The position numbers and the translations under genes were made by a program. From sequence record MW679410.1: a stretch of DNA of 64,000 nt. One strand, given 5' to 3'. Below are positions 33,539-39,438 of this stretch, piece after piece; the first letter of the stretch is position 1; every line of letters starts with the position of its first letter. The stretch is from Escherichia phage C6. The notes under the pieces were generated by a model that made no database searches, was not told the DNA's origin, and worked only from the letters and a program-made list of their open reading frames with translations.

Positions 33539-34002
33539 AATAAATCTCTCAATTTGTTTAGGATGTCGATAAACTCTTTTTCAGTTAGTATTGTATCACA
33601 TTCTGTAAGGTGGCTTGCCATCGAATGCTTTAAAACTTTACCTTTTGTGGATTGTAACGCATCGCGGAATCCTTTGTTCTGGAGCGCTGCTTCAAAATAC
33701 GCACTTTCGTAAAGCTCTTTCCACGCTTCGGAATATCTTGAAAACGGAGTTCCAAGCCAGAACAACGTGCCACGGTCCTGAGCTCTAGCATAAGCTCGAC
33801 CAGCTTTTTGCGCGTCTAACCCGGACATCCCAAATATACGTCTTTGCTGTTCAACATTTTTCACCTTACATCCTTGGAGGAATCCTTCGAGTCCACCAAA
33901 TTGGATACCATCCATAACGAAAGGCCATTTAGCAAAGTTACTTAATGCACATGATGGCCATGGGAAGTTGCTTCTAATTTCTAATTCAGACATCTTTGAC
34001 AC
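33535..34002 (-). CDS. NADAR/YbiA-like domain protein
   Basis: 155 aa; LSNFAKWPFVMDGIQFGGLEGFLQGCK parallels the E. coli YbiA core FSNFAAWPIKVDGKTWPTSEHYFQAQK (recalled from memory). Confidence 0.7.
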   Translation of the reverse strand: MSKMSELEIRSNFPWPSCALSNFAKWPFVMDGIQFGGLEGFLQGCKVKNVEQQRRIFGMSGLDAQKAGRAYARAQDRGTLFWLGTPFSRYSEAWKELYESAYFEAALQNKGFRDALQSTKGKVLKHSMASHLTECDTILTEKEFIDILNKLRDLL

Positions 34003-34198
34003 TTATAATTTCAACATCAGCCCAATGACCATAACCAGGTAGACGGTCTTTAATAGATAATCCACCGTCAAATTTCAGCATTTTAATTGTTTTAGTATAT
34101 GGTTCAATATTTCGGGCCCATGGACTCACGTCTGTCACACGATAAGTAACTTCGACCATTTCTGTGCCCAAAATTTTCTGAATCAGTTTCTTAAACAT
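33986..34198 (-). CDS. Hypothetical early protein, 70 aa
   Basis: Tightly packed ORF in the 30.x cluster; no recognisable motif. Confidence 0.5.
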   Translation of the reverse strand: MFKKLIQKILGTEMVEVTYRVTDVSPWARNIEPYTKTIKMLKFDGGLSIKDRLPGYGHWADVEIISVKDV

Positions 34199-34199
34199 A

Positions 34200-34394
34200 T
34201 TATCCTCGCTTTAAACATTTAATTACAGACAGTTCACCACCCATGCGAACATCTTCAGTTCCATCGACCCATAGGACGGTGTAGGCTTCTTTAATAGTAA
34301 CATTACCTAATTTAAAAGCAGGTAGAACCTTTGAAATCATTCCAGGAATACCTATACCCTTTAATTGGACCGTTTGCGATAAGAATAGTTGCAT
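34200..34394 (-). CDS. Hypothetical early protein, 64 aa
   Basis: Tightly packed ORF; no recognisable motif. Confidence 0.45.
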   Translation of the reverse strand: MQLFLSQTVQLKGIGIPGMISKVLPAFKLGNVTIKEAYTVLWVDGTEDVRMGGELSVIKCLKRG

Positions 34395-34714
34395 TAGAAC
34401 CTCATCTGAAAGCCGTGTGATTTAACATTACCACCATAGATGTCAGACGTATTGACTTCACGTGCAACACTCGGGTCGATATTGATATCACGGTTGAGCT
34501 TAGTGATTGCTAGGGTATCACGACCATTAACAGTACGGAATTCTACCGGGCATACAACATCAGCGTAAGCCTTAATAGATTCACGAGTAGGTTGTTTGTC
34601 GGCAGGAACATCTTTACTTGCTTTAGAGAAAACAACTTCACAGAAATTTTTACGAGTGTCGAAATAAGTGGTCATAAACATAATATTTTCCTCAAAGGAG
34701 GCCGAAGCCTCCAT
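34394..34714 (-). CDS. Hypothetical early protein, about 106 aa
   Basis: ORF with ATGA overlap onto the downstream gene; start uncertain (internal Met candidates). Confidence 0.5.
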   Translation of the reverse strand: MEASASFEENIMFMTTYFDTRKNFCEVVFSKASKDVPADKQPTRESIKAYADVVCPVEFRTVNGRDTLAITKLNRDINIDPSVAREVNTSDIYGGNVKSHGFQMRF

Positions 34715-34722
34715 TTTTAAGA

Positions 34723-35088
34723 TTAGATATCGAATTCGTTCAGAACTACATCAAAGATTGCTTCCAGGTGTTCAGGTTTAGCTCTGTTGCTCAGGATGTG
34801 TCGAATCCAAGTTTTAACCAGAAGCTTACGATTAACACCGTTCCAGCAAGGATGGGTACCTAAATCACGTTGACGGAAATCATCATCTAAAGCGATTTTA
34901 AAAGTAGAACCTTCCATTGTGATTGAAACCGTAATACCATTTTCAAAGCGCATATAAACGTAGTTAGGAGTCATGCACTGCTCGATTTCGCACACCGTGC
35001 CGTTGTTGTGTTTCCACAGGCAAATAACTTCAGAAGAACCAGCGATACCGTTAGAAACATATTTACGTTCGAAGTTGATGTAGTTCAT
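34723..35088 (-). CDS. Hypothetical early protein, 121 aa
   Basis: ORF preceded by an early-promoter cassette at 35130-35158 and the leader ...GGAGAATAAAATG. Confidence 0.6.
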   Translation of the reverse strand: MNYINFERKYVSNGIAGSSEVICLWKHNNGTVCEIEQCMTPNYVYMRFENGITVSITMEGSTFKIALDDDFRQRDLGTHPCWNGVNRKLLVKTWIRHILSNRAKPEHLEAIFDVVLNEFDI

Positions 35089-35118
35089 TTTATTCTCCAG
35101 TTTGTTTTCGTATTATTT

Positions 35119-35158
35119 GGTACAGGTCTATAATAACACAACCTGTACCAAAGTAAAC
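35119..35158 (-). promoter_or_regulatory. Early promoter cassette with stem-loop over the -10 box (PeSL-like)
   Basis: Minus strand GTTTAC, 17-nt spacer, TATTAT; inverted repeat GGTACAGG...CCTGTACC brackets the -10; leader ...GGAGAATAAAATG. Confidence 0.55.
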
Positions 35159-35162
35159 TGTT

Positions 35163-35531
35163 TTATGCAACTTTAATCCAATTATCTAAATTTAATTCAC
35201 CTTTGGCTTTCATTTTTTCAATCAAATCGTCAGCAGTAGTGCGACCATTTTGATACCATGTAACATCTTCAGAATAACCAGTTTCTTCATCTTCATAGGT
35301 CTTACAACGAATCTTACCGATTATGATGGTTTTCAGTTCGTAGGTATCACCGGTAAAAAAGTTTGTTACCATAATTTTCCAAGAGAAGTCATCAGAAGGA
35401 CCTTCCGGAGTCATGCAACCTACAAATTCAAATTGTTCTTTGTACAAGCGCCATTGCATTTCTTTAGTTTCGATTGCTTTGTAACCGTCGTGGTCTTTAC
35501 ATTTGATATATGAGTTAAGATTGATTTTCAT
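35163..35531 (-). CDS. Hypothetical early protein, 122 aa
   Basis: ORF preceded by a near-duplicate of the same promoter/leader cassette (35540-35601). Confidence 0.6.
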   Translation of the reverse strand: MKINLNSYIKCKDHDGYKAIETKEMQWRLYKEQFEFVGCMTPEGPSDDFSWKIMVTNFFTGDTYELKTIIIGKIRCKTYEDEETGYSEDVTWYQNGRTTADDLIEKMKAKGELNLDNWIKVA

Positions 35532-35539
35532 TTTATTCT

Positions 35540-35601
35540 CCAGTTTGTTTTCGTATTATTTGGTACATGTCTATAGTATCATGCCTACTAGAGATGTACA
35601 T
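35540..35601 (-). promoter_or_regulatory. Second copy of the promoter/leader cassette (degenerate -35)
   Basis: Near-duplicate of 35090-35160 (TTTTATTCTCCAGTTTGTTTTCGTATTATTTGGTACA.GTCTATA); -10 TACTAT, -35 region ATGTAC. Confidence 0.4.
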
Positions 35602-35643
35602 ACTTTTTTGCAAATAAAACGAAAAAAGGAACCCGAAGGTTCC

Positions 35644-36000
35644 TTACTTAATGATGATACGAGGATTAAGCTCTGCCGTGTAGTAATTTACAGCCTTAGT
35701 AACTATAGCTTCACCTTTAGGATTTGCCAGAACCCATTCACGGGCTCGTTTGTGAGCTTCTAATTCAGTCAATAATCCGGACCTTTGACACCCTCTGTCT
35801 TGGGTACCTGCTTCTGTTAAAAAAGCAACTAGGTAGATCGCGTTTTCATAAGGCGTGGCGGGCGGTACGTATACAGGCGGGCTTGGCGGGTTATATGCCG
35901 CGGGATGATGTGCCGGAATTCCATCATACGGCCCTGTACCTGGCACCGCGTAAGAGGCGCCGCGAGGAGAAGTAAATGTATGATTATATCTATCGTTCAT
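35644..36000 (-). CDS. Hypothetical proline-rich protein, 118 aa
   Basis: ORF with a Pro-rich N-terminal half (PAAYNPPSPPVYVPPATP); follows the terminator-like hairpin at 36019-36036. Confidence 0.5.
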   Translation of the reverse strand: MNDRYNHTFTSPRGASYAVPGTGPYDGIPAHHPAAYNPPSPPVYVPPATPYENAIYLVAFLTEAGTQDRGCQRSGLLTELEAHKRAREWVLANPKGEAIVTKAVNYYTAELNPRIIIK

Positions 36001-36010
36001 AATATTTCCT

Positions 36011-36036
36011 ACAAAAATGGGACTCCGAAGAGTCCC
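36011..36036 (-). terminator. Terminator after the 53-aa ORF
   Basis: GGGACTC-TTCG-GAGTCCC hairpin followed on the minus strand by AUUUUUG. Confidence 0.6.
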
Positions 36037-36041
36037 ATAAC

Positions 36042-36203
36042 TTATGCCTGAGGCTTACCAAAGCAAGCAGCATCTGCACGCAATACCGCACGAGCACGAG
36101 CTTGAAGCTTATCAACTACCTGATCGATACGCTTGTTGGACGCACGCTTGTAACCAGCGCGTTTAGAGGTACCGTCAACTACTTTAACTTCTTTCTTAGC
36201 CAT
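36042..36203 (-). CDS. Hypothetical small basic protein, 53 aa, not in the ORF track
   Basis: Manual translation MAKKEVKVVDGTSKRAGYKRASNKRIDQVVDKLQARARAVLRADAACFGKPQA; followed by a GC hairpin with UUCG loop and a U-run. Confidence 0.45.
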   Translation of the reverse strand: MAKKEVKVVDGTSKRAGYKRASNKRIDQVVDKLQARARAVLRADAACFGKPQA

Positions 36204-36470
36204 TTTAAATCTCTTAAATTAGAATGCAGGACTTATTGGCGTTGCCTGCGCAAGCCCTCAAGGGGAACATAGGTTTCGGATATTTAACGACAGGATAACC
36301 ATAAACCTCGTCATCATACCAACCACGGCTTAGACAGATAACCTTTTTCTGACGCGTGATAGTACAAAATACATTCAAGAGGTACACCGTAAAATTGTCG
36401 GGGCGGTACTTCTAAAACATACCGATTCGTAAATCGATAATCAGACAATTCGACGGCTCCTCGATTTAAC

Positions 36471-36719
36471 TTACTTCAGGGTAATAATAAAATGACGTAC
36501 TGCTTTACGAGCTGCTGAAGCCAAAGGCTTAGCAAATTTCAGTTCATCTTTAGCTTCCAGTTCAGCAGCCAGAGTAGCCTGAGCCGGATTCAGATGTTTG
36601 AAATAACGCAGGATTTCCAGTGCTTCGGCTTCAACATCAATAGATGCGCCGTAGTTTTCGTGACCGTTGTTCCAAGCGTTGCGTTGCAGTTCAAGAGCGT
36701 GATTCAGTTGTTTGTTCAT
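36471..36719 (-). CDS. rIII: rIII lysis-inhibition accessory protein
   Basis: 82 aa; MNKQLNHALELQRNAWNNGHENYGASIDVEAEALEILRYF... matches T4 rIII in sequence and length (from memory); adjacent to gene 31. Confidence 0.85.
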   Translation of the reverse strand: MNKQLNHALELQRNAWNNGHENYGASIDVEAEALEILRYFKHLNPAQATLAAELEAKDELKFAKPLASAARKAVRHFIITLK

Positions 36720-36857
36720 TTTAGTTTCTCAATTCGAGATAAAGATTGGCGAGCACGTTCGTCTCAGTATTTCCAGCTGAGTTGTATCTCGCCGTATGGA
36801 AGAGGCTAACCCCATACACCAACCGAAGTTCTGTATGACATCAACCTCTTCGTAATT

Positions 36858-37181
36858 TTATTTATACAAGCAAGGAATTGCTTTGTAATGACAGGTAACG
36901 AATTTTTGTTTAATTTCTTTGGGCTGTTTAATACCCAATGCAACCAACGGATGAGGCACGTTAGCAATCTTACCAACAGGAAGTGGAGTCAAATCGCCTA
37001 CTTCACAAAAATCTTCAGGGACATCAGGTCCTACAGAATAAATTTCACAAAGTTCAGGGATTTCACCTTGATGGAGTTTGCCAATAACGATACCAGATGC
37101 AGTAGTTTCTTCATCACCAGCTTGTTTTGGTTCGGAAACGAGAATAACATATTCTCCGACCGCTTTAATAGGAAGTTCCAT
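36858..37181 (-). CDS. 31: Co-chaperonin gp31 (GroES analogue)
   Basis: 107 aa; ...[18 protein letters not shown]...ELC...[20 protein letters not shown]...[31 protein letters not shown] matches T4 gp31. Confidence 0.95.
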
Positions 37182-37239
37182 ATTTAATCCATATTGTTTT
37201 GTTGATAGATTAATAATAACACGCTATTCTTAAAGCATA

Positions 37240-37536
37240 TTACAGGACAAGCAGAGTTTCGGTCTGAAGGCCATTAACAGAAATCAGCTTATCGAAACGG
37301 AATGAACGCCATTGTTGAAGGTCGACATCAAAAACATATAGAGAATTACGTGGGCCTTGTTTACCTGTTTCAGATTTGAAGTCTTCCTTTTTAGGAAGAA
37401 GGTCTAAGTCACGGGTACATTTAAGACGACGAATAGTACCATTAATCTTTTCAAACACCACTTCGTGAATGCCTACGGACAGGATGGTTTTTACTTTTTC
37501 ACAAATGCGAATTGTTTCTTGTTCAGTTAAAATCAT
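37240..37536 (-). CDS. Hypothetical early protein (31.1 position)
   Basis: 98-aa ORF between 31 and cd. Confidence 0.5.
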   Translation of the reverse strand: MILTEQETIRICEKVKTILSVGIHEVVFEKINGTIRRLKCTRDLDLLPKKEDFKSETGKQGPRNSLYVFDVDLQQWRSFRFDKLISVNGLQTETLLVL

Positions 37537-37538
37537 AA

Positions 37539-37772
37539 TTATTCCAGAATAGTTTTGATAGTGGTTGCATTACGCTCTTTTAGAGCTCTTAATAGGCTAT
37601 AGCAATTTTCAAGAATAGGTACTGTTTTGTAGTTCATGTTGGCATAAACCCACTCAGATTTATAGTACGATTTCCATCGAGAGAAAAAGTACTTTTTGTA
37701 TTCTACTGAATAGGCTACTAAGCTTTCACCTTTTGAGTTCAGGCCTGAAAACTTAACTAGACGAAATTTCAT
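37539..37772 (-). CDS. Hypothetical early protein (31.2 position)
   Basis: 77-aa ORF; ATGA overlap with cd. Confidence 0.5.
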   Translation of the reverse strand: MKFRLVKFSGLNSKGESLVAYSVEYKKYFFSRWKSYYKSEWVYANMNYKTVPILENCYSLLRALKERNATTIKTILE

Positions 37773-38317
37773 TATTCACCACAATAGTTTTGAATTGATT
37801 CCCAGTTCAGAGAACGGAGACCTGTACGGTTATACTGGATAACTTCTATGCCTGATTCACGGAGGATATCGTCCCAACCTTCAGGATTTCGGTCATAGAG
37901 CTCAGCATAAACCAATGTTTTAATTCCAGACTGTGCAATAGACTTAGCACAATCGGCGCACGGAGATAACGTCACGTACATCGTAGCGCCATCAATAGAA
38001 CTTCCGGTACGAGCTGCAAACAAAATAGCATTCAGTTCAGCATGGATTTCATTTTTAGATGACCATGCAGCGTGAGCCATACGGTGTTCTTTAAGAAGAA
38101 CGGATTTATGCGACATTCGCGTCGGGTCATACACAACACGAGTCCAGTCCTGTTCCACAGCGTGGTCACAACAGTTAACACCGCCGGATGGTGAACCATT
38201 ATAGCCTGTAGAGATAATGCGACCATTCTTTTCGATAACCGCACCCACTTTCCATGAACAACATTTTGATTCTTGAGAAATCAGATATGCAATCTGAAGG
38301 TATGTGCTTGCTTTCAT
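37772..38317 (-). CDS. cd: dCMP deaminase
   Basis: 181 aa; cytidine/dCMP deaminase zinc motifs (HAELNAI... and LSPCADCAK); position as T4 cd. Confidence 0.92.
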   Translation of the reverse strand: MKASTYLQIAYLISQESKCCSWKVGAVIEKNGRIISTGYNGSPSGGVNCCDHAVEQDWTRVVYDPTRMSHKSVLLKEHRMAHAAWSSKNEIHAELNAILFAARTGSSIDGATMYVTLSPCADCAKSIAQSGIKTLVYAELYDRNPEGWDDILRESGIEVIQYNRTGLRSLNWESIQNYCGE

Positions 38318-38655
38318 TACATCACCACTAGATAAGCTGTATTATTGGTTTCGACACGATATAAATCAGTACGAAGTTTAGTGATAGATTTCACACGTGA
38401 GGTTAATATACCATAACCGTCCGGGAAGCGTTTTTGTTTATCGAAAAATACCGCCGCCGGAATTCGATCACCAATTTCAACCGGAAGAACAGTAGCCAGC
38501 ACAGCATCATATGTTGAAGTATGGATGCTTTGGAAATCTTCACTCAGTTTAAAAAGGTCTTTGATGTACTGAGTAGCCTTTTCAGAGAGACCTCGATGGT
38601 CTCCGTCTTCGTCAGATTGTAAGGTGGCATTAACTGCTAGTTTTAAATTAAGCAT
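38317..38655 (-). CDS. Hypothetical early protein (cd.x cluster)
   Basis: ORF; start moved to an internal Met (38655) to avoid a 50-nt overlap; ORF-track start is 38697. Confidence 0.45.
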   Translation of the reverse strand: MLNLKLAVNATLQSDEDGDHRGLSEKATQYIKDLFKLSEDFQSIHTSTYDAVLATVLPVEIGDRIPAAVFFDKQKRFPDGYGILTSRVKSITKLRTDLYRVETNNTAYLVVM

Positions 38656-38884
38656 CAATATACACCCGCTGCGCTTCGACCAGACCATCAGAACCAAGTT
38701 TCAACTGGGTAATCTGGCCGCCATTTTTAGGATTAACGATAACCAATACCGCACGTGGTGATTCCTGAATTACTCGCAGAGTTGCATCAGGAAAACGTAC
38801 AGAAACCTTATTAATCAGGGCCTGAGCAAATTCTTTAACTTTAACTTGGAACTGCTCTACAGTAATAGGTTGTTCGCTCAGCAT
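38648..38884 (-). CDS. Hypothetical early protein, 78 aa
   Basis: ORF; ATGA overlap with the upstream gene. Confidence 0.5.
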   Translation of the reverse strand: MLSEQPITVEQFQVKVKEFAQALINKVSVRFPDATLRVIQESPRAVLVIVNPKNGGQITQLKLGSDGLVEAQRVYIDA

Positions 38885-39438
38885 CAGATTGTCTCCAACT
38901 TAAGTTGTTTGGTAGTGGTAGCTTGGGTAACGTCGCCTTTAACAATATAACACACTTGTTGGAACGAACTGGTCAAAAGCTCTTCAGCCTGACGATCGGC
39001 TTGTTCCTTTGTGTTATGGCGAGAATGAACTTCAATCTTACCATTTTTAACAATAAGCACTTTCCAATCGGCTGTAGCTTTTACTGGCTTAGGTTCGTCA
39101 TTTTCAGGAATACTTACCGATACCGTCGGACGTGCCACTTCAATGAAGTATTCGAATTCATGAGCAAATGCACCTGTTGAATTAAAGAGAACACCATCTT
39201 TAACATCAGGATTACCGGTAATTTTGCCCATATCAGAAAACATCATTTCATCGTATATACGAATTCGGCTTACACGCGGCTTCCCATTATGGTAAATAAT
39301 TTCAACTTCAAACGGATTCATACCTACATACTTGGCAAAAGCCATATTAGTCATGTAAGCACCGTTACCAGTGAATTCATTTTTATAATGGTCACTTATA
39401 AACTTGTAAAACTTACGCTCTTCAAAGAACTTACTCAT
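38884..39438 (-). CDS. Hypothetical early protein, 184 aa
   Basis: ORF with a strong AGGAAATCGAAATG-type leader; no recognisable motif. Confidence 0.6.
   Translation of the reverse strand: MSKFFEERKFYKFISDHYKNEFTGNGAYMTNMAFAKYVGMNPFEVEIIYHNGKPRVSRIRIYDEMMFSDMGKITGNPDVKDGVLFNSTGAFAHEFEYFIEVARPTVSVSIPENDEPKPVKATADWKVLIVKNGKIEVHSRHNTKEQADRQAEELLTSSFQQVCYIVKGDVTQATTTKQLKLETI

Follow-up and report, generated by a model that had tools for sequence, protein, structure and literature searches.

Conserved RNA modules in the rIII-30.9 spacer of a Dhakavirus-like T4-type phage: a candidate cis-acting intercistronic element

The rIII-30.9 spacer and its conservation

The spacer that separates genes rIII and 30.9 was analysed in a 64-kb window (the whole stretch of DNA considered here), which belongs to a Dhakavirus-like phage of the T4 type. 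It occupies positions 36204-36470, with the minus strand as gene-sense strand, and extends over 267 nt from the rIII stop codon to the 30.9 start codon; the ends of the two open reading frames (ORFs) give exactly the 267-bp gap that an earlier reading, made from the letters of the window alone (hereafter the sequence-only reading), had delimited. This gap is conserved, has no coding potential, contains sense-strand helices accompanied by covariation, is present once and co-occurs with 30.9. The interpretation that we favour, with slightly better than even confidence, is that it forms a transcribed, cis-acting, structured intercistronic RNA of the rIII-30.9 messenger, which would control the translation of 30.9 and the processing or stability of the transcript.

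A comparison over 1 kb around the gap gives 99% identity with three Dhakavirus phages, ABTNLsp5, IME341 and MX01, in which the flanking ORFs are annotated rIII and 30.9. The upstream cistron, rIII (36471-36719, minus), is the T4-type lysis-inhibition gene, assigned from its ORF (82 aa) and from the annotation of the relatives; the downstream cistron, 30.9 (36042-36203, minus), encodes a basic product of 53 aa that matches PHROG 1427 (E=5e-27). Together with gene 31 (36858-37181, minus), the genes around the gap are all carried by the minus strand. Homologues of gp30.9 are found in T4-like phages of Escherichia, Klebsiella, Enterobacter, Salmonella, Serratia, Yersinia and others; searches of Pfam, NCBIfam and the PDB returned no relative of gp30.9, and searches of Pfam, PHROGs, NCBIfam and the PDB with gp30.9 and the ORFs of the gap gave no functional lead.

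The sequence-only reading had described the gap as unusually long in a genome whose neighbouring genes mostly abut or overlap, and both statements are borne out by the annotation of ABTNLsp5. The equivalent gap of this phage, 263 nt, exceeds every other gap between co-directional genes over 50 kb (69 features, sizes read by hand); the sole longer junction, 311 nt, is divergent, and the next longest measure 185 and 138 nt. T4 carries the equivalent spacer as well (244 nt), which is left without annotation in the records of IME08, ABTNLsp5 and T4. A distant blastn search with the gap alone matched 775 phage records, T4 included; in a sample of 60 of them, the matched segment bears no feature in about half, and the others carry automatic coding-sequence (CDS) or repeat calls. 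The labels deposited over the spacer (e.g. in PP445228, OR539221, ON229909 and NC_055708) read "1,4-alpha-glucan (glycogen) branching enzyme", "hypothetical protein" or "ori type 2 repeat". These calls look like artefacts of automatic pipelines applied to a non-coding structured region, and such a spacer accounts for the spurious annotations deposited there.

The comparison with T4 and its relatives, which the sequence-only reading had proposed, recovers the same spacer and finds it better conserved than the flanking genes. The last 115 nt of the gap (modules M3 and M4, described below) are 91% identical between the window and T4, vs 84% for rIII, 79% for gene 31 and 73% for 30.9. Extended to ATK47 (a Mosigvirus) and two further relatives, the identity of M3-M4 ranges from 91 to 93%, that of 30.9 from 73 to 90%, that of gene 31 from 77 to 81% and that of rIII from 83 to 91%. 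This is the opposite of what a decaying remnant, such as a degraded copy of a neighbouring gene, would present. As judged from these alignments, the RNA domains of the spacer appear to be under purifying selection. Besides, a blastn search of 5,426 E. coli genomes with the gap gave no match, so that at the sequence level the spacer is neither derived from the host nor a mimic of it.

The gap had also been said to contain no ORF of meaningful length. This holds insofar as no ORF is conserved and none matches a PHROG family, but mechanical ORFs of 22-57 aa are present on both strands: 57 aa (GTG), 44 aa (TTG) and 22 aa (GTG) in sense, 24 aa (ATG) in antisense. No sense ORF of the gap starts with ATG, and indels of 1, 2 and 5 nt among close relatives alter the frame, length and C-terminus of the sense ORFs. 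The antisense ORF (MQDLLALPAQALKGNIGFGYLTTG, 36224-36298, plus strand) extends over 20-49 aa in T4, Mosigvirus and Dhakavirus relatives; direct reading finds no Shine-Dalgarno sequence in front of it, and it is probably a by-product of nucleotide conservation.

RNA modules of the sense strand

The comparison covered some 40 distinct spacers taken from IMG/VR and GenBank. In the window the order of the modules is M1, M2w, M3, M4a and M4b, followed by the 30.9 ribosome-binding site, and together they cover about 220 of the 267 nt. M3 and M4a are found in every spacer longer than 9 nt, and M1 is missing from some Mosigviruses. In more distant relatives, with contigs of 167-178 kb, the order becomes M3-(M0)-M2'-M4a-M5, or M4a-M2'-M3.

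M3 (36272-36318, minus) is the most widely conserved module. It consists of a hairpin, S1 (36289-36312), followed by a near-invariant linker, CGUUAAAUAUCCGAAA, which reads CGUUAAAUAUCCRAAA across the relatives. The stem behaves differently: among 23 variants the two lower pairs of S1 are AU, UA or GC in 11, 11 and 1 cases, and CG, GC or UA in 14, 6 and 3 cases, and they are never unpaired. The tail of M3 (AACC...) can pair with the S1 loop (GGUU), yielding a predicted H-type pseudoknot. In 7 of the 23 variants (L020, L021, L027, L039, L040, L041 and L049) this loop-tail pairing reaches 7-12 bp through entirely different sequences and beats shuffled controls (p<=0.04). The loop of M3 in the window contains a near-tandem heptamer, GGUUUAU-GGUUAU (36294-36313, minus), which offers two alternative partners to the AAACC tail (AGGUUU/AAACCU or GGUU/AACC); such a choice might make the heptamer a two-state switch.

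Searched with a covariance model of M3, the window yields a single copy (74 bits; next best E=0.26). One copy is likewise found in each of the 25 scanned loci that combine 30.9 with a spacer, and none in the six rIII loci devoid of spacer. A degenerate 16-base pattern of M3 searched in IMG/VR gave mostly chance matches; when 100 of these loci (774 kb) were rescanned with the covariance model, L107 was the sole match, so that the rest, which drew no score, serve as a negative control.

Two small hairpins separate M3 from 30.9. M4a (36251-36268, minus), rich in G+C, has the form GUUCCCC-UUGA-GGGCUUG; its flanks GUWCC and CUUG are conserved, while the loop and the stem length vary among relatives. 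M4b (36226-36249, minus), GCAGG-CAACGCCAAUAAGU-CCUGC, lies directly 5' of the 30.9 ribosome-binding site. In the relatives this position is held by a covarying stem (GCAGG/CCUGC, AACUGG/CCAGUU, GGGAGC/GCUCCC, GGUGGAG/CUCCAC or GGGAAC/GUUCC), with loops ranging from 9 nt up to a domain of about 50 nt, M5. The translation initiation region that follows (36201-36215, minus) comprises, as read from the sequence, the Shine-Dalgarno AAGAGA (36210-36215) and the ATG (36201-36203); in T4 and Mosigvirus relatives the 30.9 Shine-Dalgarno is inside a small hairpin, UUUUC...GAGAA. The sequence-only reading had quoted GGCGTTGCCTGCGCAAGCCC as an example of the G+C-rich palindromic segments of the gap. It is indeed present at 36238-36257 (plus strand), but it is imperfect, with 6 of 8 arm positions matching by direct reading. 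It is not the helix favoured by the comparative data: it competes with M4b, whose arms covary among relatives, and in L168 a C-to-A change disrupts the palindrome while M4b stays intact.

In the upstream half, M1 (36379-36462, minus) was predicted by RNAalifold as three stacked helices, P1 (GAGG/CCUC), P2 (GCCGU/ACGGU) and P3 (GAAUUGUC/GACAAUUU), of 4, 5 and 8 bp respectively, that is 17 stacked bp with small bulges and mismatches between them, around an 8-bp hairpin closed by a UACG tetraloop of the UNCG type (36420-36439). P1 holds a GGAG, within the Shine-Dalgarno-like GAGGAG, which starts 9 nt after the rIII stop codon. The RNAalifold structure, obtained with 15 distinct variants, is identical to the one derived by eye. 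It contains 25 pairs; 99.2% of the alignment cells are paired, vs 25-62% when the partners are slid. Five pairs are changed on both sides, and none of 500 shuffles reaches the observed covariation score. These double changes include two adjacent pairs of the window hairpin (A-U to U.G and U-A to C-G) and a C-G to U-A change in P3; two pairs, G9.U80 and G15.U74, are invariant.

M2w (36317-36364, minus) is a bulged stem of about 10 bp enclosing a 4-bp hairpin, CAGA/UCUG. Among its 15 predicted pairs two are compensatory (C-G/U-A and A-U/C-G), and two U.G pairs are invariant. M2w behaves as a swappable cassette: its site is empty in T4 and is occupied in JS98, pSs-1 and many phages of other genera by an unrelated domain of 135 nt, M2'.

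This M2' domain, absent from the window, is an RNA of about 135 nt with a complex fold (CGGCAAGUGCAUG ... GCUAACGGUGUGCAACAGAU), for which 44 pairs are predicted, 17 of them compensatory, besides long invariant unpaired stretches. It sits between M1 and M3 in the spacers of JS98 type and was located in L009 (about 1846-1988, JS98-type), L010, L018, L021-L027, L039-L051 and L169 (pSs-1). In IMG/VR all 18 matches to M2' are between rIII and 30.9; a 20-mer of M2' has no match in 185,579 species genomes, and M2' has no match in Rfam. Other additions lie further upstream: the spacer of IME08 (L001) has about 64 nt inserted ahead of M1, within the first ~70 nt after the rIII stop codon, and the loci of T4 and Mosigvirus possess a small hairpin module, M0 (e.g. 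UCACUgccuuAGUGUGA), in the first ~35 nt after the rIII stop. The window has neither the IME08-type insertion nor M0.

The invariant G.U pairs, two in M1 and two in M2w, are informative on the strand. On the other strand they would be A.C, which argues that the folded molecule is the sense RNA of rIII and 30.9; the pairing pattern thus indicates that it would be neither duplex DNA nor an antisense transcript. Among the functions that the sequence-only reading had listed for the gap, the structured 3' untranslated region (UTR), which could equally be called a 30.9 leader, is the one that gains from these data, through the compensatory changes, the G.U pairs that are possible in sense only and a conservation above that of the flanking genes.

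None of these structures corresponds to a catalogued family. The covariance-model search that had been suggested for the gap was carried out with the 4227 models of Rfam 15 on positions 35400-37400 of the window (E<=10), on the gap alone (E<=10) and on seven relatives (E<=1). It gave no match in the gap or in the equivalent regions of the seven relatives, T4 and JS98-type loci included; the sole match in the relatives is the terminator after T4 30.9. ARAGORN detected no tRNA or tmRNA gene in positions 34000-39000 of the window or in six relatives. A literature search, including exact motif strings, returned no description of the region, nor did one emerge from the paper on RIII and S1, the T2 RIL-seq preprint, the LSm-fold paper or Weinberg et al. 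(2010); an earlier account in the older T4 literature is possible. The element apparently represents a so far undescribed group of phage RNA motifs, their general kind being known.

Proposed function and rival explanations

The gap is poor in transcription signals. On its minus strand no sigma-70-like promoter was found (in the region, 5 promoter-like matches vs 4.7 expected from shuffling), nor does the gap contain a MotA-box middle promoter or the late consensus TATAAATA, whose sole occurrence is at 36859-36866, where gene 31 ends. Two candidates failed the consensus test, namely GGGCUUGCG as a MotA box and GUUUAU...UAAAUA of M3 as a sigma-70 promoter. No terminator separates rIII from 30.9: the terminator-like sites of the minus strand are at 36017-36038, at 35626-35645 and inside 30.9. 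The first of these, a hairpin with a U-run located 3' of 30.9, is the earliest terminator-like site downstream of rIII. An intrinsic terminator of rIII itself was considered and rejected, no hairpin followed by a U-run being present after the gene; after M4a comes CUUG instead of a U-run. The sequence-only reading had described the 30.9 ORF as flanked by terminators; the one after it is confirmed, but there is none upstream, so that 30.9 is terminator-followed rather than terminator-flanked. As neither promoter nor terminator consensus interrupts the gap, the simplest inference is a single rIII-spacer-30.9 transcript.

On such a transcript the spacer would be a chain of independently folding sense-strand domains, M1, M2w, M3, M4a and M4b. 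M3 and M4 adjoin the 30.9 ribosome-binding site, and their covarying stems combined with near-invariant unpaired nucleotides are the signature of RNAs recognised by a partner; for this reason we propose that they control the translation of 30.9. The partner of M3 and M4a/M4b might be a trans-acting RNA-binding protein of the phage or of the host, or with lower likelihood a small ligand, and its binding would set the level of 30.9 translation. M1, a long irregular helix with GGAG at its start, could serve in processing and stability, by uncoupling the two cistrons and shielding the 3' end of rIII, and M2w might be an accessory, exchangeable cassette.

Several observations weigh against this interpretation. 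Co-transcription, the ends of the transcript and any regulatory effect are inferences. The single-sequence folding energy of the whole gap is ordinary (z = -1.31 in sense, -0.43 in antisense), and thermodynamics alone does not demonstrate that the gap is structured. In the clade of the window and T4 the loop-tail pairing of M3 is limited to 4-6 bp, in two registers, and is not significant, while in the minimum-free-energy fold of the window M4b competes with the palindrome hairpin at 36238-36257. The mean column identity of M1 is 92% and the alignments come from fairly close relatives, so that some of the counted covariations go back to one or two evolutionary events. In L030 a 30.9-like gene begins 9 nt after rIII, which indicates that 30.9 can be expressed without the spacer. 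Finally, the differences of module order between genera fit autonomous domains at least as well as a single integrated leader.

This last point leads to the rival that deserves most attention: the spacer may be the precursor of one or several stable trans-acting RNAs, cut from the rIII-30.9 transcript and used as a decoy or sponge (for S1, RegB or RegA) or in a ribonucleoprotein (RNP) with gp30.9, the protein-coding neighbours being incidental. We hold it as a possibility only tentatively. Modules that are reshuffled, inserted and deleted as autonomous units between genera are what this hypothesis would expect, and near-invariant loops and linkers borne by covarying stems are typical of RNAs recognised by a partner; M2', with its numerous compensatory pairs, resembles a functional RNA more than a leader, the constraint on the spacer exceeds that on 30.9, and the GGAG of M1 comes shortly after the rIII stop codon. 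Besides, PMC9409239 reports that RIII binds ribosomal protein S1 and blocks the activation of RegB; the same source cites a 2003 Biologija paper on the expression of rIII and 30.9. On the other hand, the gap has neither promoter nor terminator of its own and no known processing site, and the literature searched reports no T4 RNA from this region. A free-standing small-RNA gene, one of the options of the sequence-only reading, is not supported, given the same lack of promoter and intrinsic terminator. Moreover the modules are always immediately 5' of 30.9 and are missing when the spacer is missing, which is what a cis element predicts. A more ambitious version, to which we give a similarly minor share of confidence, is that the spacer hosts an undescribed modular RNA family, in which M3 would be an H-type pseudoknot aptamer with invariant recognition nucleotides and which would include M2' in many relatives; it might sense a metabolite or a protein and switch 30.9, or release stable RNAs that act, possibly as an RNP with gp30.9, on the RNA metabolism of the host. 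One possible target of such released RNAs may be the S1/RegB pathway, reportedly modulated by RIII.

The other explanations jointly keep a small part of the probability. That the spacer acts as DNA, i.e. as a promoter, a replication origin, a packaging or recombination site or the target of a homing endonuclease, could be argued from its high nucleotide conservation, from cassette-like insertions at fixed junctions and from the 10 bp that the GenBank record of ATK47 labels "ori type 2 repeat". We judge it very improbable: the invariant G.U pairs, which would be A.C mismatches on the other strand, and the strand-specific compensatory changes point to a single-stranded sense RNA, the gap is single-copy and it lacks the promoter consensus of any T4 class; to our knowledge, none of the mapped T4 origins is near 130.6 kb. 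Equally improbable is a small protein, encoded by one of the sense ORFs (57, 44 or 22 aa), by an AUGAUG micro-ORF in M3 or by the 24-aa antisense ORF. Such ORFs exist, some automatic annotations call "hypothetical proteins" here, and the antisense peptide MQDLLALPAQALKGNIGF... recurs in the clade of T4, Mosigvirus and Dhakavirus. Nevertheless the sense frames have no ATG start and are shifted by indels, the AUGAUG at the start of M3 becomes AUGUUG, AUGUAG or AUAAAG in relatives, and the antisense ORF, variable in length and without Shine-Dalgarno, recurs only where the nucleotides themselves are conserved and is lost outside that clade; none of these ORFs has a PHROG match. The least credible is a functionless remnant of a gene intact elsewhere. 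The length of the gap, close to that of a small T4 early gene, and the different ORF found directly after rIII in distant T4-like phages (L028-L033) would agree with it, but no ORF or frame is conserved and no protein family matches in any frame, yet the segment is strongly constrained, more so than its flanking genes, and its substitutions keep base pairing instead of reading frames. Altogether the sequence-only reading is partly supported: the gap and its structured-RNA option stand, whereas the small-RNA gene, the gene remnant and the DNA-level element find no support in these data.

T4 is the reference lytic phage, yet a segment of about 250 nt is without RNA or regulatory annotation in the records inspected, and this segment is more conserved than the surrounding genes across several genera of Tevenvirinae infecting Enterobacteriaceae. 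If it is a regulatory or otherwise functional RNA, the T4 paradigm would gain a new element of post-transcriptional control, and rIII and 30.9, both poorly understood, would become easier to approach. In that case the covariation-supported motifs, M1, M3, M5 and, in relatives, M2', all absent from Rfam, could be used in annotation pipelines.

Related systems and neighbouring elements

Among the nearest functional precedents is the mRNA leader of T4 gene 32, which is said to contain an autoregulatory pseudoknot operator. Both cases concern a T4-type phage and an H-type pseudoknot, predicted in the case of M3, which precedes the regulated cistron in its UTR, is conserved in the T-even phages and acts in cis on translation, a control that is only proposed here. 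The two differ in that they share no sequence similarity, that the M3 pseudoknot is one of 4-5 domains and is about 70 nt away from the start codon, and that its second helix is weak in the clade of the window. M3 also recalls the preQ1-I riboswitch (RF00522) by its 5-7-bp hairpin, its A-rich linker, a tail that could pair with the loop, and unpaired nucleotides that are near-invariant while the stems covary. However, Rfam gives no match at E<=10 with the gap alone, the linker of M3 is about twice as long, and the gene downstream, 30.9, has no link to queuosine.

For M1, a comparison can be made with phage T7, in which hairpins processed by RNase III lie between the early genes. M1 is likewise a long irregular intercistronic helix (4+5+8 bp) with small bulges, and cleavage within it could, by analogy, give the upstream message a protective 3' hairpin. 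Unlike the T7 hairpins, M1 ends in a multiloop and an inner UNCG hairpin and not in a simple internal loop; we know of no dependence of T4 on RNase III. The PeSL cassettes of T4-type phages are said to associate an early sigma-70 promoter with a stem-loop and to be repeated at many intergenic sites; a mobile cassette of this type was rejected for the spacer, which has no promoter consensus and whose modules are single-copy in the window. A further comparison concerns the manA and wcaG motifs, described by Weinberg et al. (2010, PMC2864571) as covariation-supported structured RNAs in potential 5' UTRs of T4-like cyanophages. The spacer shares with them the support by covariation, the potential 5' UTR position and the T4-like genome; it differs in sequence and structure (they are Rfam families, without match here), in host range and in gene context.

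Two observations concern the surroundings of the spacer. The 138-nt spacer between genes 31 and rIII contains, at 36748-36793 (minus), the M5 motif GGCGAGA-UACAAC-[hairpin]-GAACGUG-CUCGCC, for which RNAalifold predicts 12 pairs, including 7 compensatory ones; the window holds one copy of the motif, and Rfam gives no match to it. In more distant relatives M5 is found upstream of 30.9, at the position of M4b. In the window it stands just downstream of a perfect T4 late-promoter consensus, TATAAATA (36859-36866, minus), which overlaps the last codons and the stop of gene 31, so that late rIII transcripts would start just upstream of M5. On the other side, downstream of the 30.9 terminator, an ORF of 118 aa (35644-36000, minus) holds the position of gene 30.8. 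No Pfam family matches it, and its nucleotide sequence shows practically no similarity to those found at the same position in T4 or in Mosigvirus, at most 6% of the query being covered; this ORF is apparently a non-homologous replacement in a hyperplastic slot.

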